A DNA stretch of 61,334 nucleotides, counting the filler. It is 14 parts of 14 records of this genome, joined end to end, with 100 filler letters (N's around TTAATTAATTAA, not from the genome) between each part and the next. Parts side by side here need not be neighbours in the genome. Positions count along the whole stretch, not along the records: positions 44,337 to 50,229 come from SRR15195285_6721; 13 more parts are not named here. One strand, given 5' to 3'. A program made the translations under genes and the position numbers. Below the pieces are notes generated by a model. It did not search any database, was not told the origin of the DNA, and saw only the letters and a list, made by a program, of their open reading frames with translations. Positions 3,576 to 50,680 of the stretch are shown here, piece after piece; the first letter of the stretch is position 1, and the number at the start of each line of letters is the position of its first letter.

Positions 3576-3675
3576 NNNNNNNNNNNNNNNNNNNNNNNNN
3601 NNNNNNNNNNNNNNNNNNNTTAATTAATTAANNNNNNNNNNNNNNNNNNNNNNNNNNNNNNNNNNNNNNNNNNNN
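3576..3675. other. Artificial contig spacer (first of 13)
   Basis: N44-TTAATTAATTAA-N44. The others start at 8768, 12340, 18141, 22840, 26746, 31831, 36049, 39348, 44237, 50230, 54392 and 57505. Confidence 0.98.
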
Positions 3676-3692
3676 CGCTTGAAGAGGTTTTT

Positions 3693-6600
3693 ATGTCGAT
3701 TGTGCGCAGCCAGAGAGCACAGTCATCTGTTTCGACAGGAAGTACTGGATATGCAGCATCGGAGCTTGAGACCACCAACTCCGCATCTGCTTTACAGATG
3801 GAACGTGGCTTTATCTCTCTGGAGCAGAGCAAACAGCGAGCCCTTCGCCTTGCTGCACCCGATGCCGATTTAGAGAGAACGAACTCTTCTGTTGCCCTTG
3901 CCAAGCGCACCGGCGGAACAAAATCGCAGGTGTCTGCGCTCGTGCTCAAGAACATCAGCTTCCAGAAACGGCAGCGCTGCACCAACTGTTGCCAAATCAT
4001 CATTCCAGCGATTCTTCTGTTCGTAGTCGTTATTATTCAGATGATTGTGGACACCACGTTCGAGGCCAAGTCCAAATGGGAGGTCAAGCGCAACCTTCCT
4101 AAGGAAGTAGATGTGGAGAATTTGATCCCAGCTATGGTTCGTGAGCTGGAGCTCGATCAAACCGAGCAGTATCTGAATGACATCGGGCAGTACTGCTACA
4201 GCGGTCAGCGCAACGATATTGTGGAGCTCTACTGTCCGACAGGCAACATCACCGATATCGTGTTTGCATCATATGGACATCCGATAGGAAGCTGTGGTGC
4301 CTTTGACTTGACACCTGGCTGCCATGCTGACAGCACAGAGACGGTCATCAGGACCCTTTGCATCGGACAGGAAAAATGCTATGTCAAAGCAGCGGAGGCA
4401 ACGTTTGGGGAATGGTCGCCAGCACAATGTAAGCCCAAGTGGGACGACGACGGGCCGGAAGACTCACTGGAGTTGCATGTCCAGATCGCGTGTGGGGGAC
4501 AGGTTGACCCCTTGGGCGGAGACACCACGGGCTTTGGTCCAGCTGACGCATCCCTCCGTGCCGCAATCGACTTGGCCGTGCAGAATACTGAGGCAGGAGA
4601 AGAGCTGCAGCAGCTGGTTTCTGTCGGTGTCTCAGAATTGGCTGTTACTGCGATCTCATTGCTTGACGCTCTGATAACCAACGACGCGCTCACTACCGAA
4701 CAGGTCGACGTAGTCGACTTTGGCTTCGTCAACGTCGACACGCTGTTCGAGACAGTAGGCGTAGATTTAAATCAGCAGGTCGGTGATGCACTGGCCAATC
4801 AACTGCGGGCTCTGAATCAGACTGTAGACATAAATATCGCCAGCTTGCTTGGCCGAGATAATCTTACATTTTCTTCATCGCAGCTGCTAAGAGGCGGAGC
4901 CGCTGCACCAGAGCTGAACACAACGCAGCTGGACTTGCTGGAGCAGGCTGGTTTGGCCTCGTTAGCGACGGGAGCGTTGGCTGACATACCCATTGACGTG
5001 GGTAGTGCTGTTGGTTTAAGAGACGGAACTACGGTCTCTGTCACCAGCGATCAGGTCGGTCAAGCTCTCGATGCAGCAAACATCACTCTAGGCGATCTTC
5101 TCGGGCTCGGACCTGGCAATGCCTCGCAAGTGGACCTGGCGTTGGAGATCATCCGGAACGCGAACGGAACACAGTTTTTCTTCGACATCGAAGGTGATCA
5201 GATCTCGACCCAGTTAGACATCACTCGGCAAATTCTCGGCACGCTGCCTGTATTATTCGGAGGAAGTTACGGGGATCAATTTGACGCGGACACTATCTCA
5301 AGCCAACTGATCGACCAGCTAGACGGAGCAGGCATTTCTTCGGCAGAAGTCATCATCGAAAACTCAGTTGAGTCTGTCATCGCAAATTTCTTCCAGTTTG
5401 GAAACACAGCCCCACTGACGCCACCAGTGATGATGTGGAGTACCCCGAAGGTGTTTAGCGTGTCGCCTGGCGCAGATTCTATCGGCGGTGGAGTCTGCAG
5501 GGACGTGCAAGGATGGCTCGACCAGATTGATAAGGAGGTTGCTGCGTCGAAGCACCACATCTACGACACCCTGGACGAAAACAAGTACAACCATCGCATG
5601 AGCAAGGATGAATTTGCTGAGACTGGGGCATACCTGTTGACTGAGCTTCCTTTCGCTGCTTTCATCTTTGATCCGAACAACAACGCAAGCACGGGCTCCG
5701 GTGGACACTTCAATTACACCGTGCAGGTTGAAACAGAGCAGATCTACATGTCCTGGTGGCTTCCGGTACAGTTATTTTATGGTGTTGACCCACGGAACGT
5801 GCTACTGAATTTCGTGGACAGTAGCATTGCGTACGGCCTAGACGGCAGAACCCGCATTGACACCGAGATTCAGGCCATGGACTACATGTTCAACCAGGCC
5901 AGGGCTCTTGCGGTTGCCGATCAGCTAGCGTACATTCTTTTCCCATTCGCGCTTACCTTCCTGCTGCCGGTGTTCGTGAACCTGATAGTGTATGAAAAAG
6001 AAGCCAAGCTCACAGAGTTGATGAAGATGAGTGGGATGCACATGAAGTACTACTGGCTAGTCAATTACGGCTACAATTATGCCATGTATGTCGTCGTTGT
6101 GGTCGCCTTCTCGATCTCTTGCTATAGTGTGCAAATCCGCCTGTGGACACAGACTAGCCCAGTCGTTTTATTCGCGCTCTTGTTCTTGTGGGGTCATGCA
6201 TTGGTGTCTCTAAGCTTTCTGATCAGCACATTGCTTGATCGAGACCTCACCAGCAGCCTGACTGGATACGTCATCGTTGTTGCTGGAGTGCTGGCTTCGC
6301 TAGTTTTCAATGCGACAGTATTTTACCGGGACGAACCACCGATGCTCTACATGATGTACGCCCCGCTCGCGTTTTATCGAGCCATCTTCATCATGACCAC
6401 ATCATGTAGTAGGTATGCTTGCATAACCGTGGCTGATATAGGACCGGAGATGCTCAGGATCTACTTCTATCTTATCTTCGACGCTGTGCTCTACTTGTTG
6501 AGCTCATTGTATTTGGATAAGGTACTGCCGAGCAAATACGGAGTACCGGAGCACCCACTCTATTTTCTGAAACCTTTGATTGCACGATTCAAGCGACGAA

Positions 6601-7775
6601 GTGCATCTGCGAAAGCTGAGCCACGCCCTGTCGTTGACGGTGACAACCCCAGCGCCGGTCGCGGTGACGCAGACCCGATGATGCAGTCTGGCGCGAGTGC
6701 AGCAGAAGCAGAGATGGAGCGCCGCCGAGGGCGGGGGCTGCCCACCGACGAAAGTGCAGATAGCCGCAAAGAGCGAGAAAAGATGTTGGGGCGCAACTCT
6801 GACGAGTTCGCCGTACAGATGCTTGGGCTCCACCATGAGTACGACCGCAGTGTCTTTGCAGACAAGGAGAAGGCCCGCGTGGCGCTCGTTGATTTGTTCT
6901 TGTCCATCGGTGCAAACGAGTCGCTTGCTCTGCTCGGGCCCAATGGCGCAGGCAAGTCCACCTTGATCTCTATCCTGACTGGGCTCTTCATGCCCACCAG
7001 TGGCACCGCCAGCGTGTGCGGTCTGGACATTCGCACGTCAATGCGGGACATTCACAAAATTATCGGTATCTGCCCTCAGTTCTCTATCCTGTGGGACACG
7101 TTGACCTGCGCAGAGCATCTGCTTTTCTTCGCTCGTTTGAAGGGTGTTCCCGCTGGTGAGCAAGATGGGTATGTTCGGCGTACGCTGGACCAGGTCGGGC
7201 TTGGGCTGGCTGCCGACCGGCTCGCAAAGAATCTCTCCGGAGGGATGAAGCGGCGGCTGAGCATCGCCATGGCGCTAGTTGGTGATCCGTTATTTCTTGT
7301 GATGGACGAGCCGACGACTGGTCTTGATCCGGAGACAAGGGAAGAGCTCTGGCGAACGTTGCTCCAGATCCGAGGCAGCGGTCCTGCTATCCTGTTGGCC
7401 ACACACGCGATGGACGAGGCCGAGCTGCTGTGCGGCAGAATCTCGATACTCTCGCGCGGTACGCTCAAATGTGTAGACGATCCCCACACACTTCGAGAGC
7501 GATTTTGCCCGAGCTACACCCTCAACGTCAATTTCGCACAGGGTTTCAACAAGGAAGTGGTGCTAGAGCTGCTTCCTGACTGTGAGGTAGTGTCCGAGTT
7601 TGAGTCATCGGCAAGTTTCGAAATTCAGCCGGCGGAAGCTAGGCACATGAGCACGATCTTCAGGAGCATGGAGGCGGCAATTGAGGGGGGCAAGGTGGCG
7701 GACTGGGGTTTGGTCCGCGGAGGGCTAGAGGGTGTATTTCTTGATGTTGTGCAGGACGAAATCATTTCGCACTAA
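3693..7775 (+). CDS. ABCA-subfamily half transporter with a SUEL-type lectin domain in the exocytoplasmic region (may be 5'-partial)
   Basis: 1360-aa ORF. N-terminal TM after KNISFQKR; IVYEKEAKLTELMKMSGM; Walker A GPNGAGKST, signature LSGGMKRRLS, Walker B MDEPTTGLDP, H-loop THAMDEAE. Confidence 0.93.
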   Translation: MSIVRSQRAQSSVSTGSTGYAASELETTNSASALQMERGFISLEQSKQRALRLAAPDADLERTNSSVALAKRTGGTKSQVSALVLKNISFQKRQRCTNCCQIIIPAILLFVVVIIQMIVDTTFEAKSKWEVKRNLPKEVDVENLIPAMVRELELDQTEQYLNDIGQYCYSGQRNDIVELYCPTGNITDIVFASYGHPIGSCGAFDLTPGCHADSTETVIRTLCIGQEKCYVKAAEATFGEWSPAQCKPKWDDDGPEDSLELHVQIACGGQVDPLGGDTTGFGPADASLRAAIDLAVQNTEAGEELQQLVSVGVSELAVTAISLLDALITNDALTTEQVDVVDFGFVNVDTLFETVGVDLNQQVGDALANQLRALNQTVDINIASLLGRDNLTFSSSQLLRGGAAAPELNTTQLDLLEQAGLASLATGALADIPIDVGSAVGLRDGTTVSVTSDQVGQALDAANITLGDLLGLGPGNASQVDLALEIIRNANGTQFFFDIEGDQISTQLDITRQILGTLPVLFGGSYGDQFDADTISSQLIDQLDGAGISSAEVIIENSVESVIANFFQFGNTAPLTPPVMMWSTPKVFSVSPGADSIGGGVCRDVQGWLDQIDKEVAASKHHIYDTLDENKYNHRMSKDEFAETGAYLLTELPFAAFIFDPNNNASTGSGGHFNYTVQVETEQIYMSWWLPVQLFYGVDPRNVLLNFVDSSIAYGLDGRTRIDTEIQAMDYMFNQARALAVADQLAYILFPFALTFLLPVFVNLIVYEKEAKLTELMKMSGMHMKYYWLVNYGYNYAMYVVVVVAFSISCYSVQIRLWTQTSPVVLFALLFLWGHALVSLSFLISTLLDRDLTSSLTGYVIVVAGVLASLVFNATVFYRDEPPMLYMMYAPLAFYRAIFIMTTSCSRYACITVADIGPEMLRIYFYLIFDAVLYLLSSLYLDKVLPSKYGVPEHPLYFLKPLIARFKRRSASAKAEPRPVVDGDNPSAGRGDADPMMQSGASAAEAEMERRRGRGLPTDESADSRKEREKMLGRNSDEFAVQMLGLHHEYDRSVFADKEKARVALVDLFLSIGANESLALLGPNGAGKSTLISILTGLFMPTSGTASVCGLDIRTSMRDIHKIIGICPQFSILWDTLTCAEHLLFFARLKGVPAGEQDGYVRRTLDQVGLGLAADRLAKNLSGGMKRRLSIAMALVGDPLFLVMDEPTTGLDPETREELWRTLLQIRGSGPAILLATHAMDEAELLCGRISILSRGTLKCVDDPHTLRERFCPSYTLNVNFAQGFNKEVVLELLPDCEVVSEFESSASFEIQPAEARHMSTIFRSMEAAIEGGKVADWGLVRGGLEGVFLDVVQDEIISH

Positions 7776-8767: not shown

Positions 8768-9102
8768 NNNNNNNNNNNNNNNNNNNNNNNNNNNNNNNNN
8801 NNNNNNNNNNNTTAATTAATTAANNNNNNNNNNNNNNNNNNNNNNNNNNNNNNNNNNNNNNNNNNNNAAAACCAGCGGCTCAGGGCGGTCCGCGGAGTCC
8901 CCCGCGGGTGCAATGAGGGTGCATTCGGGATCCCGGTGCCGGATCCCGGTGAGTTCTATATAGAATGTGTACTATTTACTCCACAAAGATCATCGATTTT
9001 TGGTTCCCCGCGGTGCTGGCGCTGTGGGGGCTGCTGCTGCTGTGCTGGCTGCTGCTGTGCTGGCTGCTGGTGCTGGTGGCTGCTGCAGTTGGCGGTTAGA
9101 TC

Positions 9103-12013: not shown

Positions 12014-12584
12014 TTCGCGAAGACAAAATGATTACCGTTTTTTTCGAAGTTAAAGGCGGCGACGTTGCCTTCATCGTGGCACAATAGAAGGAGCAGCAGC
12101 CGGCACAATGTTGCCAGCTAGGCTTCGCCACTGTCTAGTGGCCTCCACTAATCGACCAAAAAGGGTCTGTGAGAGGCCACAGCCGAGGGACAACGCAGAA
12201 CGTCCCGCTGAACCTTGTCATCGGCACATGGCTGATTTCGTAAACACGACTGAAACTCAAGTTGCTCCCGTCCTACACCGCTGCGCGCTGTCACCATCAC
12301 TCTGCCGACGTGCTGTCTTGCCTAGGACACTGCACTACGNNNNNNNNNNNNNNNNNNNNNNNNNNNNNNNNNNNNNNNNNNNNTTAATTAATTAANNNNN
12401 NNNNNNNNNNNNNNNNNNNNNNNNNNNNNNNNNNNNNNNGGGGGGGGGGGGGGGGGGGGGGGGGAAGTGATCACTTGAACACGGACGGTGGTGTGGTGGC
12501 CAGCAGCTGTAGCAGCGTGTACACACGGCTGGCCACCTGGCTGGCTACGGAGGAGAGGGGAGGGGAGGGGAGGGGAGGGGGGCG

Positions 12585-17488: not shown

Positions 17489-18383
17489 TTCCGATCTCGC
17501 CCCGTCTAACAGATGCCACTACTACTGGCAAACGATAGACGGGGCGAGATTAGGATGGCCGGCCAGCGGCTGTTGTACGGCTCTGTTGGGCGTTCCGAGG
17601 GGCGCGATCGAGTCCCAACACGCATAGCTCGGATCTCTGAGCGGCGCGGGGGCGCCGGAGCAGCCGCTGACAAGCTGTCGCTGGGCAAAGACGGAGCCGC
17701 GCGCCCGGAAAATCGCTAAACCGGCGGCGGAAACTGCAGCGGAATCGCGCCGCGCTCGCTGCCGCGGCTGCCTCGCCCCGCGCCGCCCCGCCGCGCTTCG
17801 GAGCCGCAGCCGGCACCCTCAGCGCCGCTTTCCACCGCGCGGCAGCCCCCGCTCAGCCCCCGGGGCGCCCCGCCAGCAGCGCCGCCTTCGCGGGCGTCGC
17901 CACCATCTCGGCGGCCTTCGTTGTCTTCACGGACCGCTGACGTTGGGGAATCCACCAGAAATCGAAGAAATGCAAATGTGGATTCCAATTGATTGTAGAT
18001 GTGCATTCCCGCGCCGCCGCCAGTACGCTTGTTAGGCCTCTGGTCTTACGTTGGAGAAAGTGGCAGTCCGAGAGCGGCCCCGCTATTAGTTCTCCCTCGA
18101 GTCGACTTCACCTACGAAGTCGATTCGCATTCCTCTCAATNNNNNNNNNNNNNNNNNNNNNNNNNNNNNNNNNNNNNNNNNNNNTTAATTAATTAANNNN
18201 NNNNNNNNNNNNNNNNNNNNNNNNNNNNNNNNNNNNNNNNAAATCATGTCCACCCTTTGTAACTGGTTGCGCGGCAGACTTGACAGGCGGGCAGGCTGCT
18301 CTCGCTGCTAGCTAATCTTGTTTCTCTAAGCTCCATATCGCGGTATCGCTACACGCTCCGGCGCCACGTGACGCGCAGCGACG

Positions 18384-36332: not shown

Positions 36333-39241
36333 ATGCGCGAGAGAGGGCCAGCAGCAGCAGGGCCTGCACCCGACTCGTCGTCGCTCGACTCATCGCTGCA
36401 CGGTTGGGCGCGGCTGCTGCAGACCGCTACGCACAAATTCATCAATGAGGCTGGGTCGGATCGGATTTCGTACGTCTGCTCGTCTGATTGACTAAACAAT
36501 TTTCTCGATCTAGCCAGTCATGTTGTAGGAAGTCATCTGAAAAACGAGCTGGTCGGTCGGAGCAGGTATGTCGACATGGACCGCCTAGCTAAATCGATGA
36601 CGGAGCGCGCGATGCATACAGAGACATCGCTGCTGGATATGGATATGGTTAAAGGCTCTTCCATGCGCAAGCGATGGGTCGAGCGAAGATTAAATTCAAT
36701 CGCGACGCAACGGATAATTCTCATGCCGCTGCACTCACGCTACTGGGCATCGCAGCTAGGTTGGGGTATTGCGGCGCCGCTCGCACTGCTCTGGGTGATG
36801 TACTTTTCGCTGCTGTACTCACGAAGTATCCGGTCAACAATTTGGATACCAGGACGGGCACAGCACCTTGACCTGTGGTCACTCGGCAAGGACGCTGATC
36901 TGGAGCTGTTTTCGTACGTCTGGCTGTTGCCTTGCGCGCTCCCTTGCGGTCTCGCTTGCGAGGGTGCACGCTGACACCTCGTCTGTGGTTTGTCTGGCGG
37001 TCAGACCTGCTGCTATGTTGATCATTCTAGGACTGACATATGGCGCGTACGCGGTCGAGACCCGCGTGGCTACGTTGACAAAGCGTGGCGCTGGTGCCGA
37101 CGCAGCCCAAGGGTGCAAGAGACAAAAGCTGGGCCGCGACAAATCTAGTACTTCGCTGATCAACGAGACTGACACTGACTCGAGCGCGTCTGATTCGAGT
37201 GATGGGTCAGATTCTGACGATGAGATTGCCGAAGGGGCGCCGATCCCGACGGAGGATGCTACTACTATTCGTAAACGAAGTGCAGCCCGGCAAGTTGAAC
37301 CTAGCACAGTCGTCGAAACCGACAGTGGCTGCGCAACTTCGTCGTCAGGCGAGCGGCTGGACACTGAGACGGTAGTGCAAAAGCCATCCGGACGCCAAGG
37401 CGGTTCACCTCCAGGCATGGTGCGCGTTATACACGCCATCGCTTCAAACACTCCCGTCCTGACATTTTGTGGATGGTTGGTACAACAGGGTCGTGCATCC
37501 ATCTCATCTCGTGGGGCCATTCGGGCGACGATTTGGGAGCAGGCGACTGACGAAGAAAGAAATATGCCTTTCGTTGTAGGTGAGCGTGCGGGTTCGAAGC
37601 GCTACATGGACCTTCAAGACATCGGTCGAATTATCTCAACGAGGGTTAGAGAGCAGCGCCTGAACACTCGGTATTTGCGGGCAGCGGCAGCCTGTACTGT
37701 GATCATAGTGCTGGGGCCGCTGCTTCACCGGCTGCAGCCGGAGCTGCAGCAGATCTGGGTACTTGATAGCAGATTAACAGTTCGTTGTTGCTGACCAAAC
37801 TTGATTTTAACAAAATTCTATCTGGCGACCACCGTGCGAAAATATCATTGCTAAACTGCTGTTGAAACAGGGAGAGGTATCCATGCTCGAGCTGGGGTCT
37901 TGGCACACGCAACCAGCAGTCATACTGCGTCAGCAGCTCGGTACGTGATTTCAAAATGTGCGCTTTTCAACTATTGAATGGACGTCAAGTTGTTCCTGAA
38001 CTTGTCGAGATAACGCCATATAAACACAGCTGCTTTGTGTGACAGGTCCAGTGCCAACAAGCACCCTCTGCGCAACTGTCGTGTGTCTAGTGGCGAAAAC
38101 TGTCTGCACCGCAGGTGTGCTTTTGCATTTGGCCGTAATCGAACGGTGTGAAAGTCAGCGCTGCCTTCGGGCCAAATATTTCGCCGCACTCACAAGTCGT
38201 GGCAAGTCCCGGCGTTTTGGGGTGCCACATCTTCGCTTACACACGGTTGAGAACGTTCGAATGTGGCTTGCGCTCCGCTCACACTTACGTCATCATGGCC
38301 CGCAGCGAGCATCGATTGCTATCGTCGGCCGCTGCTGCACAGCCACTCTCGTGCTGACGTTGATCACCACTGTCCGTTTCCTTGAGTGGAGCTCTGCTGT
38401 GAAGATAAAGGGCCACACGCATGATGCATCCACGCCGACGGCAGCAGCTGCCGCTGCAGTTGCAGCGGCAGCAGCAGCTGTCACGGATGAAGATGGGTCG
38501 GAACATAGCCAGGAAATTGTGCAACTGCTGAATTCCTGCATCAAGACGTCATCACATGTCAACGTGCAGAGTGGTATTCGACACTGATCTGCAACTGGTT
38601 TGGACAGAGAAATGTTGCGTTTGCTCAGCTATTCTCGGGGATAGGAACATATCAAACGGCTGCACGGTCCAGGTACACACGAGTTCCTGCAAGGGTCTGC
38701 GTTGAACTTTGATTTGGTGAAGAAGTCCCCTTTACCCACTCACAGCTAGAGGTCGCAGTTCCGAGTCATTATGTTCGTGGGGCCTGAGATACGTTGCTGC
38801 CGTTGACCAGGTGGTCTGGACTTGTGTGCTGGGATTTTTCTCTCTTCGCTTCATCCAGATTTCGCTGTACCTGAACAACAAATACAAGGCGAACATCGCA
38901 TTGCTTCTGTCTGAGCAGATGCACTGCCACATAAGAGCGCAGCACAAGCCGCATAAACGGCCTGAACTACTGTGCACGATCCAAGTGAGAAACAAATGAT
39001 GCGGCCAGCTTGCATTCTGCCTTATGGTCTGAGAGTACGGTGCCACTCGCGTGCATGCTAGGTGCTGAAAGTTGGTACAAAACTACTCAAAGAGCTCGAG
39101 GGGCCTCACAAAATTAGCGGGCTGCCAATGTCGCCGCTGTACAACTCGCTCTTCAAGCTGATTGTCCTCTCCGCCCTTTCGGCAGTCGGGTCGCAAATGC
39201 TAGGTCTCAACCTGAGGCTTTGGAAAATCAACGTACTATGA
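36333..39241 (+). CDS. PHTF: PHTF (putative homeodomain transcription factor)-family membrane protein, multi-exon; start uncertain
   Basis: LLDMDMVKGS; VPHLRLHTVENVRMWLALRSHLRHHGPQR; LLLSEQMH..KPHKRPEL; the last exon VLKVGTKLLKELEGPHKISGL..LGLNLRLWKI closely resembles the animal PHTF1/2 C-terminus. Confidence 0.85.
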
Positions 39242-43855: not shown

Positions 43856-44526
43856 CCTCTCACGCACCAAGCCCACACCCGCCCACTTGCCCTCCCACAA
43901 CTGCACCGCCACCGTCAAATCTCTCCCCCCGCTCGCCTCAAACACCCCCCTCCCCAAGCGTGGCGCCCGCAGAGCTCAGACCACAGCGGCTCGGCGCGAG
44001 CACATCATAGTAGGATCCTTTTCACAAACAGGCACAAACTGATTCAGAGACTTATGCACCAGATGAATAGCTAGTATCGGTGCGCACTGACCAGCTGATC
44101 TTGAGCGGGAGCGCGGCCGCCCTGGCCCTCCTCGACGAGCCCGTTGAGAAATCAGAGGCTACTACTTGATCTTGTAGGTCTCTGATTCTCTCCTCAGTGG
44201 GACATCGGACAATCACACCGTTTTTGTTGCAGGCCGNNNNNNNNNNNNNNNNNNNNNNNNNNNNNNNNNNNNNNNNNNNNTTAATTAATTAANNNNNNNN
44301 NNNNNNNNNNNNNNNNNNNNNNNNNNNNNNNNNNNNGTCAAATCACTCATTTCAACCTGGGTACAACAGTACATGTGGGATCCTACAGCCGTCTACGCGC
44401 GGGCGACGACGCCGTCTAGCTACTGCCGCGCGCGGGGCCAGAGGGCGCTCCGCCCGATCCGGCGGCGGCGCCGCCGGATCCGAGCGCTGCGCGCGTGCGT
44501 ATCGGTGCTTCCGGCTGCTTCCGGGG

Positions 44527-47500
44527 ATGCTGCTGTTCGCAAGGACGGTGTTGGTTGCGTTGGCGCTGTTTGCTCCGCATCAAGTCGCTGCCTCTCCGTC
44601 AGAGGAAGCGATCGAAGCCGTCGTCGCCAAAATGCTTGGCAATATGACCATGGCACAGAAGGCCCGGCAGCTCGTGTACGTAATCGCCCTCAATTCGCGC
44701 GACTCCCTCACACATCACCAGCACCATCCCACACGCACGCGCGCCCCTCCATCTCTCGCTTCTAGAGTTCTCGATGGCACCCTAGCCTGCCTGGTGCATC
44801 CACTCAACTACTGTCCGTGCTACTCGCTCTGGTCCTGTGTACACGTGGCTTTCGCTCAGGCTGGAGGACATTGGCACGGTAATGACCAACGGAAACTTCG
44901 ACAGCGCAAAGGCGAAGGCTTACATGAAAGACCTCGGCGTGGGCAAGTTTGACTCCTATGGCCGCAATACGGACTCAATTTTTGGAAATCAAGTTCAGAG
45001 AGCCATCCTCGAGTCCTCCGAAGGTATCGGTGGGATCAAAGGGGGCATCGGTGGGATTCTGAGCGAGGAGTGCCAGCACGGGGTGCAAGGCGACTGGCAT
45101 ACAATATTCCCGTCACCTTACACCATCGCGGCGACGTTCGATCGCCAGCTGCTCGGGCTCATTGGCGAAGTCATTGGCACAGAGGCGCGCGCCGGCGGCA
45201 CGGCGGAATGCTGGTCCCCGGTCTGCGGTCTCGCACGTGAACCACGTTGGTGTGTACATCTCATGCCACTCCTCCGGCGAACCCCTGGCAAACGCGTTCT
45301 GTGACCGGCTGCATCATTTGACCCGCTTTGCGATCCACAGGGGCCGCTCCGAGGAAGAGATGTGAGGATCAGAGGAGATTTGCTCCCCCAGAGGGTCTAA
45401 CCCGCAACGTTTACCTCGATCGCCCAATGTTCGGATGTCTAACCCACAATGTCTCTCTCGTTTGGATCTAGGGGAGAAGATACTTTCCTCGCAGGCGAGC
45501 TGGCCGCCGCTATGGTCGCTGGGATGACTGGCGCCGGCCGCAGCGCCAAGGCCGAGCTATCTGACGACACCACCGTGGCGCCACTCGTCAAGCACTACGC
45601 TGTCTACTCAATCGGCGAGTCAGGGCGAAATGCTGCCCCTGCGCACGCTGGGCGACGTGAGGTGCAGGAAACATTCTTGCCAGTGTTCGAGAAGGCCGCG
45701 AAGGCAGGAGCCCAAGGGCAAGTTTTGCTCTTTTCTCGTTAACAAACGCCGCTATTGCTAGGCTTCGCTTAACTGCAGGGGCCTTTGTGCTTTCTTTCTC
45801 AGAGCGATGAGCTCCTACAACGAGGTGGACGGAGTGCCAACGTCTGGTGACTACTGGCTCTTGACGACCCAGCTTCGGGATGAGTTTAAATTTAAAGGCT
45901 ATGTAACCTCTGACTTTGGTGCGATTTCTGGGCTTGGGACTGTCGAGAACGGTGGGCATCACGGCACCTGTGCAAGCGACGAGGATTGTGTCCAGCAGTT
46001 CATTGAGGCAGGTGGAAGCCAGAACGGCCACGACTTCGGCGATCAGTACGAAGTCCATGTCCAAAACCTTGTAAAGAAGGGGAAGATGTCCATGGCAGCC
46101 CTCGATCGGGCGGCTGGTGCGATCCTCTCAGTGAAAGCGAGGCTCGGGCTCATCCCAGGGGCATTCCCGGAGACTGCAGGTCGGTGGCTATACAGCAGGT
46201 TTTGTAGCGTGTAAGCGTGCGTGCATGCGCGTATGTACGTTGCGTGATCGTGCGTACATTTGCCATGTTGATGGATGCAGGTAAACCTGAGGCAGCACTG
46301 GTTGACGAGAAGCTGGTCCAGACGAATCTGGGTGACAACCCGAAGCATCGTGCTACCGCTGTACGTGCAGCTCAAGAAAGTGTGGTCATGCTAGCAAATG
46401 GAGGTAGCACGCTCCCACTTGACCCGACCAAGATCAAAAAGCTGCTTGTGCTTGGTGAGCAGCAATCCATATGTTTGCTCGAACCGACGCAGTGTCTTGG
46501 CGATTTATTGCGACAGGGTTTTTATTTGCATGCGGCAGGCCCCAATGCCGACGAGGTCCGCACTGGAGATTACTCTGCTGCTGGATGGGCCGGGGGCGCT
46601 CCAAATGGTGGGGGGAATATCGACAATGAAAACATGGTGACGCCGCTCGAGGGTTTGAAACTTGCATTCCCGGAGGCAGACGTTACTTGGTCTGTTGGTA
46701 CAGGCATAACTGGTTACGATGGGTAAGGGCGTCTCGCAGAAAACGCACATAAACCCTTGTAGAACATCTGGATGTGAAAGTGATTCGCGTTGCGCGTGAT
46801 AGGCCAATTCATGGTCCACACACCAGCGTCCAGCAGCAGCGTGATGTAAACCCGGCGAATACAGGGGGGATCGACCCGTTTTGGTGCGCGCAATCGCCCC
46901 GGCTTTGCGTGCGGCTGCCTACTGTTGATGTGACCCCCAAATTTGTCATCCCACGTGCGCTGTGTTTGGCCTCTACAGGACGGTGGTCCAACGACACTCG
47001 TACACTCTTGGAGCTGCATTCTCACCCACCGCACCATCCTCTCCTTACAAAAATAATTCCGCGGTACCAAAGTCACCACTCCCAGCGACGACACAGGGCC
47101 TCAGAGCATACTATTTTGCTGGAACAGACTGCACTGGCACGCCGGTCCTAACTCGTCTCGACTATGCCATCAACTTCCATTTTTTTGCACTGGGCCCCGG
47201 TATACTAGGCCCTGGCAGTTTAGCGATCTAGCTATAAGTCTATCTTGCTGGTTTTCGTGCAACGTATTGATGCCGTCTGGACTCAGACTTGAGTCTATGT
47301 TGCCACAACTTGTGACAGACCCGACACGCTTCCGGAACGGGACTTTCTGTGTACGCTGGGAGGGTACGGTGACACCTGATACTACCGTGCAAGGCGGGCA
47401 GTTTGGAATTGGCCTCGGTGAGCACTAGCGCAAGACTTTTGTTCAGTTGCTTAGTTGCTGCACACGGAGGTGGTTTGCTGGACCCTGAGGTGTTTTGCTA

Positions 47501-49268
47501 CACGCTTATATATTTGGCGGAAGGCAAGTCACGCTTCAACGGCAAGGCCCCGAGCGGTTTGGGCGGACGGCTTTATGTCAATGGTACTGCCTGCATCTTT
47601 CTGCCCATGGCAAGCATGACTTCCTGTCCATTCAGTTCGCCACTACCATCCTCATCCATGCTTGCCCTGGTCTTTCTGCCCAGGTTTGAAATATATCGAT
47701 GCTTGGCAAGAATCTGGCAAGTCAACAGTTGGTCGCGCCTATAACTTCAAGGCGGGACAGCCGATCCAAGTCAAGCTGGAGTATTATCAGGAAAACACGG
47801 ACGGCAATCCATCTATTGCTCTGCTCTGGTCGCTGTTGCCGTCACAGTCCTCCGACTCAATCACACCGGCAATCAACGAGATTGCCACCGCGGATGCAGT
47901 GGTCGTACTCGTGGGTGGTGCCAATAACGACCAGACAGCGACCACGGAGGGTGTGCGACAAAACGTCTCTCATGCTTATCTAGTTTGCTTACCTAAAGAG
48001 CTCTGCTTGTCCCAGGAGAAGGTGTGGACCGTGCGTCGCTGTCGCTCGCGGTGCGCAGCAATTCCAGCCCAGGACCTCGTTGTGTCGTGTTTCGTTGCGT
48101 AGCTTATGAACTCACGGTATCCTTTCCACACACGATAGGGGGAGCAGATGGCTCTCGTAGAGCGTGCTGACAATGCATCACGTGTCCACAACGTTCCTAT
48201 GGTGGTTGTACTCGTCGATGGCAAGCCTACTGCGGAGCCAGGGTTGAAGAATCTTGGTGGTGCGCTACTGGCTGCCTTCCAAGGCGGCCAAGCCGCGGTA
48301 GGCGCAGCAATTTATCCACAGGACTTTGTTGTGTCGTGTTGCGTTGCGCGACGTATTTACCCGTGGTGTCCTTTCCGCACATGATAGGGTGTCGGAATTG
48401 CCGACGTGATCGCTGGCCAGTACAATCCTTCGGGAAAGTTACCTGTCTGCTTCCCAGCATCGGCGGATGTACTGCCGTGCTATTACAACCACAAACCAAG
48501 TGCAGCTCGGAACGGGTGGATCGACGCGACTCTTCCTAGTGAGTCAACCGTCTACCATCATCCTTGTCACCGTTTCTCAACTGTCAGTCTTACTAAGATG
48601 ATGTGCGTGGCAGATGGAGATGGTGTTCTTTGGTCGTTTGGCCGTACGTCTGTCGCTCGGTATCTGGTCCTCGCAGAGACCAAGATGCCCTACAATGCCT
48701 TCCTTAGCGTTGATTCTTTTCTTGCAATAATTGTCCCTGAATGCCTATGCAGATGGTCTGTCCTACAGCAACTTTAACTACAGTCACGCTGTCATTCCGA
48801 AGACGGTCTCAAGCAACGGTACCCTCCAGATTTCGGCCACCGTCACGAACACTGGCCAGATGGACGGTGAAGAAGTGTCGCAATTGTATCTTCGCGATGT
48901 CGTCTCGACCGTCACGACGCCAGTTTTGGTACGCTCCTGACGGACACTGACGTTGCTATGTGGTAGCAGCACTACGAGGATGCACTCGATCTTCTCTAGC
49001 GATGCAGTGGATGCTCTTTGCACTTTTGGTCCTGATTTGGTGTACGTGCCATCTATCTCGTTGTGTCACACAGGCGCTCAAGGACTTTCAGCGCATCCAC
49101 ATCAAAGCCGGTGCCTCGGAGATCGTCAACTTTTCGGTCGACGTGGGCTCGGAGCTAAAGGTTCTTGGCCGTGATTATCGATGGGTGGTAGAGCCTGGCG
49201 AGATAAAGGTTTTCATTGGCGGAAGCTCAGCCAGCGCTCAGTTGTTTGGTTCCTTCGACATTGTTTAA
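44527..49268 (+). CDS. Secreted GH3 beta-glucosidase/xylosidase with PA14 and Fn3-like domains; intron-rich
   Basis: EECQHG, AREPRWGR, GED, KHY, MSSYNEVDGVP, GYVTSDF, GPNAD, PA14 GLRAYYF, NPSGKLP, GLSYSNF, EVSQLYLRD, LKDFQRI, VVEPG. Confidence 0.93.
48051..48387 (+). repeat. Pair of homologous introns (48051-48138 and 48298-48387)
   Basis: Manual alignment gives 68/88 identical positions with one 2-nt gap. Confidence 0.85.
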
Positions 49269-49525: not shown

Positions 49526-50229
49526 TCACAATGCGGCTGATGTAGCGTTGTCACGCGAATGACTATTCCTGCTCACACGGTGCAGTACATCACGGAAAGA
49601 TTTGTGAAAGGCACACGACGCACGCAGCATTGCTTCGACAATCGTTGGGCAATTCGCAGCCTCAAGCCCATGGCCCATGTTGTCCAAAAGCATCAACTCG
49701 CTAACCTCCTCTCCAAGCAACTCGTGCAACAGGTGCCCATTCGCTGTCGGCACAAACTCGTCGCCTTTGCCATGGATCACCATACATGGCACACGCGAAC
49801 TATGCTTGACCAAACGCAACTCATCCTGCCGAGACCTTGCCGACAGCACCGCCTCCATCTGGCGCTTTTTGGCTGGGGACATGACGTTCATTGGTGGCTC
49901 GCGAGTCAAGGAGCTCATCGCCCTCGCGCGGGTGTCGCCCTCGTCAAAGAATGAATCCCCGGCGATGTGCAATTTTGTACGTACTCGGGCATCGACACGA
50001 TCCTCCAACGAAGCATCGGAGCCTCCTGGCACTCGGGCTTTGTACGCATACTGCGCGTAAAACGATATTGACGGTAGCTGAGGGCCGTTGCCTGGTCCTG
50101 GGCAGGTCATCAGCAACGTGGCTGACCGCACACGCTCTGGGTACCTAACGAGCAGCAGCTGCGCTATCATACCGCCCATGGACTGGCCGATCAGATGCAC
50201 TCGCGAGATAGACAATCCATCCAGTAGAA
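49526..50229 (-). CDS. Alpha/beta hydrolase (5'-truncated)
   Basis: HLIGQSMGGMIAQ nucleophile elbow, IHGKGD, MGH. Confidence 0.88.
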
Positions 50230-50680
50230 NNNNNNNNNNNNNNNNNNNNNNNNNNNNNNNNNNNNNNNNNNNNTTAATTAATTAANNNNNNNNNNNNNNN
50301 NNNNNNNNNNNNNNNNNNNNNNNNNNNNNAGGAATTGACTGGGTGGTGAAATCCTGAGATGTGAGAATCGATCATTTTTTGGGAATCATTTCGGCGCTCC
50401 ACTCATTTCTGCGAGACGGACAAGAACTCCAATCTCGCCATCCGCATGCATCATCCCCAGCCCCCCCTCCTCCTCCTCCTAGAAACATCCCGAAGTTCCT
50501 TGCTGGTTTAATCGGAGTCCTATTGATAGATCTAATGCGCGAAAAACACTCGAGGCGTCCGCCAGATTTCTCAGTGATTTCTCCGTACTATTGGCCGTAC
50601 TATTGACCGGGGCGAGTGGGCGCCCCTTTTTCACTCCCCCCATACAGGTGACTGCGGTGGGTGAGGAGTGAGGGCTGACG

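Follow-up and report, generated by a model that had tools for sequence, protein, structure and literature searches.

A pair of homologous introns in a GH3 beta-glucosidase gene of an uncultured marine protist: a probable same-gene intron duplication

How new spliceosomal introns originate has long been asked, and few clear cases come with a recognisable donor. The new introns of Daphnia are said to be flanked by short repeats, and DNA-transposon introners of Micromonas and Aureococcus were reportedly described by Huff et al. in 2016. Here we report on two neighbouring introns, termed A and B, in a GH3 beta-glucosidase gene of an uncultured marine protist, which lies in a window of 61,334 nt (the whole stretch of DNA that was analysed). 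The closest described systems are the following. The non-segmental same-gene duplications (SGDs) of fungal introns: for these, transposition of an intron inside one and the same transcript was put forward as a possibility (Collemare et al., 2013; PMC3609843). The introner families: in the survey procedure given by Gozashti et al. (2022; PMC9860276) these are kept at four or more similar introns, with 5 to >2,000 copies reported, and a filter drops intron pairs with similar host proteins. The DNA-transposon introners of Micromonas and Aureococcus: as portrayed in the same survey, these feature target-site duplications (TSDs), terminal inverted repeats (TIRs) or both and many dispersed copies, an Aureococcus example adding 12 nt to the transcript (PMC9860276). 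The fungal introner-like elements (ILEs): these are described as longer than regular introns, with a stable predicted structure and hundreds of copies (PMC3609843, PMC9860276). The new Daphnia introns: a review attributes these to double-strand-break repair and presents them as having no identifiable source sequence (PMC3488318).

We consider that A and B probably arose by a sequence-directed intron copy within the same GH3 gene, that is, by a non-segmental same-gene duplication. As in the fungal SGDs, the introns are doubled in one gene, the flanking exons are single, and length and folding energy are ordinary; unlike the fungal cases as depicted in PMC3609843, the host is an uncultured marine protist and the copies are 77% identical rather than near-identical. 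Beyond that account, the target hexamer and the absence from orthologues are documented here, the restriction to one gene being checkable on 61 kb only. With the introners of PMC9860276 the pair shares border-to-border likeness, precise and lineage-specific insertion into coding sequence and an aquatic microbial host, and some of those families are likewise described without TSDs and TIRs; the difference lies in the number of copies, of which two are known here. By our reading of the filter outlined in that survey, a same-gene pair like A and B would be discarded. The Micromonas and Aureococcus introners resemble A and B in being short introns placed by insertion in marine picoeukaryotes. Unlike them, A and B have no TIRs (they score 4 and 5 in alignment, where shuffles average 5.6), their junctions match in register only over GG for A or GGT for B, a TSD of 2-3 nt at most, and no codons are added. 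Unlike the fungal ILEs, the two known copies have the length of ordinary introns (88 and 90 nt, where those of GH3 range from 65 to 256 nt) and fold like them, with z-scores of 0.20 and -1.18 that are not significant and no compensatory pairs. The Daphnia case is similar in that recent gains cluster in one gene, and the CGCG and GG microhomologies described below are in line with its repair route; unlike what the review reports there (PMC3488318), the source here is a neighbouring intron. Same-gene intron duplication and introner-like gain have both been described already; the present pair adds a new, well-documented example rather than a new principle.

A and B are homologous copies, with a likeness far beyond chance. 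In a MAFFT alignment 68 of 88 columns are identical, with a single 2-nt indel near the 5' end, after the GT. Self-BLASTN of the window aligns 96 nt at 77.1% identity (E = 1e-12), and this is the sole direct repeat among three hits at E <= 1e-4. The local alignment score of 75 compares with 13.9 +/- 2.3 (maximum 27) in 2000 shuffles, and each of the remaining 119 pairs of GH3 introns scores 22 or less. The alignment spans 48047-48140 against 48294-48389, i.e. CGCG, the intron and GG: the likeness is limited to CGCG| upstream and |GG downstream and stops at the intron borders, thus starting at both of them within the 5 exonic or 10 intronic bases used as an introner criterion. The flanking exons E13, E14 and E15 match successive, different and collinear parts of GH3 homologues; hence the likeness does not derive from duplicated coding sequence, and a segmental duplication was rejected because the exon homology differs on either side. 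The preliminary description of this DNA, which gave the coordinates, lengths and identity of the pair, placed both introns in phase 0, called them copies of each other and noted that their flanking exons encode different GH3 parts sharing only CGCG|GG, is confirmed on all these counts by the alignments, the shuffles, the homologues and the gene model. The 20 differences (12 transitions and 8 transversions) are distributed along the intron and correspond to a Jukes-Cantor distance of 0.27, so that the copying is moderately old, at about 0.27 substitutions per site. Both introns have weak donors and the same acceptor pentamer (Table 1), and 13 of the 15 other GH3 introns terminate in CAG. A search of Rfam with A and B gave a single chance-level hit (E = 3.3, 16.5 bits against a gathering score of 47), on which grounds a snoRNA host intron was rejected.

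The junctions of A and B define an apparent target. Within the spliced coding sequence of 2,934 nt, the hexamer CGCGGG is found at exactly two places (1.7 occurrences expected by composition); these two are the A and B junctions, and both are split as CGCG|GG by the introns, which bears out the target preference suggested earlier. Relative to the homologues P0048, P0047 and P0042, 0 residues are gained or lost at the two sites; therefore, the hexamer is a pre-existing Ala-Gly codon pair and was not carried with the intron. To judge by these sequences, the copy landed at the single other match that GH3 offers to the ligated junction of the donor. Across the window, counting both strands, CGCGGG occurs 52 times, and the other 50 occurrences are devoid of the A/B element.

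A and B are ordinary U2-type spliceosomal introns: both have GT-AG borders and both restore the frame when removed, and removal from mRNA is seen for B. A 183-nt contig of the oligo-dT RNA run X17 joins 48297|48388 with flanks of 118 and 65 nt and 0 mismatches, omitting exactly 90 nt with GT..AG ends, which is intron B as predicted; another contig of this run removes 48929-49073 (I17). Excision of A yields DRASLSLA|GEQMALV and excision of B FQGGQAA|GVGIADV, both collinear with every homologue compared, and junction enumeration restores the former solely by removing A; we infer the splicing of A from this reading frame and homology. Four contigs of the metatranscriptome X15 are unspliced over 47843-48370, through I12, A and the 5' end of B, and may represent DNA or pre-mRNA. 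Cover is uneven: the DNA run X1 has none over 47999-48226, and X16 reaches the 3' end only.

Orthologous DNA was represented by proxy, through public ORF calls reading into or across the intron sites. P0048, whose source name is a 13.7-kb assembly node with the EukProt label Picozoa sp., is one uninterrupted ORF of 967 codons with 73% identity to the spliced GH3 translation, collinear over all 16 GH3 intron sites. The A site is crossed uninterrupted by P0036, P0042, P0043, P0044, P0047 and P0048, and the B site by P0037, P0038, P0042, P0044, P0047 and P0048. Among these, P0036 is present on 13 contigs (longest 14.3 kb) and crosses the sites of I12 and A, as do P0042, P0043 and P0044. Among 45 proteins (P0001-P0045), 23 span the A site and 25 the B site collinearly, with P0039 left out as an intron read-through; some of the spanning proteins are annotated or transcript-derived and thus silent on introns. 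Since the relatives' ORFs cross all 16 sites, A and B are lineage-specific, and by this comparison they would have been gained in the lineage of the window after its split from relatives without an intron at either site, in agreement with the intron gain proposed in the preliminary description. Other relatives bear private introns at different positions: P0037 and P0038 have an in-frame insert of 27-30 residues about 10 codons upstream of the B site, with a GTGAGC-like start and a CAG-like end, P0042 breaks after YNPSG, and P0035 is interrupted twice, at the A site and after TAEPG. More distant relatives have none, which argues for stepwise gain, heaviest in the lineage of the window, as the simplest history; it looks like a gene-specific burst of intron gain in GH3. 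The I11 site is crossed by P0040 (93% identical in that exon) and P0041, both of which break at the I12 site, and I11 is the youngest datable GH3 intron. Among the matches listed, a literature search on Picozoa introns returned nothing relevant. A difference of 16-17 introns in this gene between close relatives, uncultured marine picoeukaryotes, makes it a good site to seek ongoing gain.

Read-through ORFs in public collections also sample alleles of the two introns. P0058 is identical to the window's read-through of E14 and B, and P0039, from a near-identical strain, continues through I12, E13 and A with 97% identity. P0033, P0034 and P0059 have an identical E14 protein followed by a different sequence of the intron at the B site; at one read-through position these three have F, as in A, where the window's B has C, which agrees with A and B having diverged from one ancestral sequence. 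In P0033, 8 of the first 19 read-through residues differ from those of the window's intron B despite the identical E14 protein. Diverged B alleles beside identical E14 indicate that intron B evolves fast between very similar populations. The transposition had been called recent: its lineage specificity stands, and its recency has to be qualified in view of the distance between the copies and of the presence of B already in diverged alleles.

In the window, an nhmmer profile of A and B recovers A and B only (E about 1e-27; the next hit has E = 15), and neither this profile nor self-BLASTN finds a further copy on the other 13 contigs. The profile also matches none of the other 15 introns of GH3 (17 in total at most), so that the pair does not visibly account for the intron density of the gene, as the earlier suggestion had it that it may. 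In the DNA run X1, comprising 25,638,449 contigs, no copy was found at a likeness of at least 80%; seven records matched, and an intron was touched only by the contig of the locus itself (48250-48400). This search should have revealed fairly similar copies, because unrelated pieces of 39-49 nt were reported; a family as old as the pair would evade it, because A and B, at only 77% likeness, failed to match each other. A 20-base conserved core searched against a metagenome collection gave at least seven loci, all GT-rich low-complexity or unrelated and without flanking intron homology, and did not recover the locus itself; likewise, a read-through peptide profile searched against 1.84 billion protein representatives gave two unrelated tandem-repeat proteins and did not return the known read-through ORFs. 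For these reasons both negatives weigh little. Relative to the four or more similar introns of an introner family, two copies are thus known from the 61 kb, X1 at 80% or above and the two low-power scans; with respect to copies in unrelated genes, by which SGDs are distinguished, none is present on the window's other 13 contigs or, at that likeness, on those of X1. The claim of a dispersed mobile family, implied by the earlier label 'introner', is not supported, in view of this absence of a third copy from the sequences searched, the lack of TIRs and the minimal TSD.

The copying event can be envisaged as follows. One intron would have been copied precisely and in the same orientation into a second Ala-Gly codon pair (GCG|GG) of GH3, 159 coding nt away, and the copies would later have drifted neutrally to their present identity. 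On an RNA route (classical 'intron transposition'), the excised intron would have been reverse-spliced into its own mRNA at a site mimicking the ligated junction, followed by reverse transcription and recombination into the gene over a short tract. On a DNA route, repair synthesis or template switching from a donor 249 nt away would have been primed by the CGCG and GG microhomologies. We slightly favour the RNA route, the DNA route being almost as likely: the former explains the exact borders for free, and with the latter it is easier to see why the hexamers are identical, why the distance is short and why I12 and I15 survived. On either route the pair represents a same-gene duplication and not the footprint of a high-copy introner. 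The case keeps donor and copy side by side, with an exact target, relatives whose sites are empty and one copy proved to be spliced; hence, reverse splicing and microhomology-primed DNA copying can be tested against each other on real sequence.

A copy made within the gene is suggested by the exact borders, the shared orientation, the distance of 159 coding nt, the sole matching hexamer and the lack of TIR and TSD, along with the ordinary length and folding, the lack of any other copy found and the absence from relatives. Several observations weigh against it. The RNA route needs a very short conversion tract, since two nearby introns survived, I12 at 35 nt from A and I15 at 151 nt from B. The count of only two copies is based on 61 kb and a single metagenome, the latter at an 80% cut-off that A and B fail mutually, and the negatives from the metagenome collection and the protein representatives, which missed the locus and its read-through ORFs, say little. 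The RNA check advised in the preliminary description succeeded at the B junction; at A no spliced junction was found in RNA contigs, X15 being unspliced there and X17 stopping short of it. The 16-17 GH3 introns without counterpart in relatives imply that an intron-generating process has been active, one that could plausibly have had a mobile source. The core of I11 (47617-47665) recurs as 49 nt with 5 mismatches (90%) on a 618-nt X1 contig of similar depth whose flanks are unlike on both sides; therefore, dispersed intron-related repeats may exist in the organism, and I11, missing in relatives 84-93% identical in that exon, may derive from such a repeat. At their 5' ends, I6 and I8 are similar to the block that A and B have in common there, with scores of 7 and 6, levels that are reached by 23 and 57, respectively, of the 6,904 GT sites of the window; I6 and I10 (the latter within 47418-47523) are the most alike pair after A and B, with z = 4.6, 4 of 120 pairs having z >= 3. 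These hints are post hoc and unconfirmed by the profile search, and I6, I8 and I10 may be faded older copies or chance resemblances. A kinship of I5 or I9 with B was rejected, their global-alignment z of around 3 being background and nhmmer finding none.

Part of this evidence equally feeds the possibility that A and B are independent insertions of a dispersed introner preferring CGCG|GG, with its other copies outside the 61 kb. The likeness reaching both borders is the operational criterion stated by Gozashti et al. (2022; PMC9860276), who also give introners as commoner in aquatic organisms and found in ocean metagenome-assembled genomes; A and B are missing in orthologues, GH3 has gained 16-17 introns unseen in relatives, and both the I11 match in X1 and the weak resemblance of I6 and I8 would be in keeping with a dispersed source. 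We nevertheless regard this as rather unlikely. None of the 50 other CGCGGG sites of the window is occupied, against 2 of 2 in the GH3 coding sequence; X1 and the window's other 13 contigs, within the limits given above, hold no more copies; TIRs and a clear TSD are absent; no other GH3 intron matches the profile; and two copies just 159 coding nt apart are not expected of a low-density family. If both introns were instead old, their likeness would have to stem from gene conversion or from shared functional constraint, for instance through an RNA embedded in them or through a regulatory element, with no copying event. Conversion could explain why L and F alternate at a homologous position in A (the window versus P0039) and in B (the window and P0034 versus P0033), but unrelated introns give it no homology to start on, the differences are scattered over the whole intron, the match runs of 11-13 nt are at chance level for 77% identity (by estimate, not tool output), and both introns are missing in relatives. 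Constraint accords poorly with the chance-level Rfam match and with the lack of significant structure and compensatory pairs; we deem an ancient origin of both introns very improbable. The window is pieced together from short contigs of a bin, several ends of which are runs of poly-G, poly-C or microsatellites, and this brings to mind an artefact of assembly or binning on a chimeric or mis-joined contig. To this we give hardly any credence, as X15 contigs independently run from I12 through A and E14 to B, X1 and X17 cover B with its flanks, P0039 and P0058 from other collections reproduce the read-through ORFs, and 20 differing positions mean that neither copy is a collapsed or duplicated read.

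Same-gene copying might also have a longer history at this locus. GH3 could be a self-seeding hotspot, which acquired its 16-17 introns relative to relatives 73-93% identical in protein by repeated cis copying into sequence-matched sites, with A to B as the latest legible round and I6, I8 and I10 as faded earlier rounds. We offer this as a speculation with the odds clearly against it; if true, it would be natural evidence that within-transcript intron transposition alone can make an intronless gene intron-dense.

The gene model was obtained by tblastn with two homologues and by enumeration of GT/GC-AG junction pairs (Table 1). The ATG lies at 44527 and the stop codon at 49266-49268, with 977 codons before the stop, no internal stops and a spliced translation collinear with P0048; a homologous Aureococcus protein shares 54% identity. 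The intron count is 16, rising to 17 if 46781-46883 is exonic, as suggested by the sequences of relatives; most introns show a G|G junction context, and the model includes micro-exons of 21, 35 and 30 nt. The interval 46713-46978 is ambiguous: it holds either a single intron of 256 nt (46723-46978) or a weak intron of 68 nt (46713-46780) followed by an exon of 103 nt and an intron of 95 nt. The three-piece model is favoured because the exon peptide (..PIHGPH..GGIDPFW) is coding in P0048 and P0047. A nucleosome-like periodicity of the 16 intron sites was rejected (p = 0.13; the highest R was 0.58, for a 200-nt period). The poly(A) site lies only 18 nt past the stop codon, and beyond it a convergent alpha/beta-hydrolase-like ORF has its end at 49526.

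Table 1. Positions, in window coordinates, of the introns, exons and other features of the GH3 locus
Feature	Position	Strand	Description	Basis
Linker	44237..44336	.	artificial, N44-TTAATTAATTAA-N44; left end of the GH3-bearing contig	
GH3 gene	44527..49268	+	beta-glucosidase with PA14 insert	tblastn with P0001 and P0006; Pfam families of matches
Intron I4	45718-45802	+	GC-AG, GCAAGT...CTCAG	only option restoring AGAQG|AMSSYNEV
Intron I6	46455..46538	+	5' end GTGAGCAGCAAT, like the shared 5' block of A and B	weak hint
Probable intron I8	46884..46978	+	5' end GTGCGCGCAAT, like A	weak hint; preceding exon coding in P0048 and P0047
Intron I11	47584..47683	+	100 nt	junction enumeration; missing in P0040 and P0041
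Intron I12	47951..48015	+	65 nt; 35 nt upstream of A	junction enumeration; site also breaks 93%-identical P0040
Micro-exon E13	48016..48050	+	35 nt; encodes (G)EGVDRASLSLA; ends CGCG	tblastn, junction enumeration
Intron A	48051..48138	+	88 nt; GTGCGC...GATAG; phase 0	removal restores frame; homology
Exon E14	48139..48297	+	159 nt; separates the copies; starts GG, ends CGCG	tblastn, junction enumeration
Intron B	48298..48387	+	90 nt; GTAGGC...GATAG; phase 0	spliced poly(A) RNA contig
Exon E15	48388..48538	+	encodes GVGIADVIAGQYNPSGKLP...; starts GG	tblastn, junction enumeration
Polyadenylation site	49286	+		X17 RNA contig stops there, then 11 A

The window is not one chromosomal stretch: it consists of 14 contigs, each 3.0-5.9 kb long, and between them are linkers of 100 nt that all have the composition given in Table 1 (e.g. 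3576-3675, 8768-8867, 12340-12439 and 10 more). The GH3 contig occupies 44337-50229 (5,893 nt), with its right-hand linker at 50230-50329, and X1 contains 71% of the words sampled from it. An ABC transporter gene, ABCA, lies at 3681-7775 and, as the window is built from linked contigs, on a separate one; contrasts across linkers compare separately assembled and binned pieces, and the contrast drawn earlier between the intron-dense GH3 and an 'intronless ABCA' is not supported, as it crosses an artificial joint. The other contigs contain long uninterrupted ORFs of up to 1,383 codons. On the GH3 contig itself, the neighbouring gene on the minus strand (49526-50229) is likewise a long uninterrupted ORF. 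The self-BLASTN comparison also brought out two short palindromes, at 17494-17550 (57 nt, 81% self-complementary) and 38437-38482 (46 nt, 83%).

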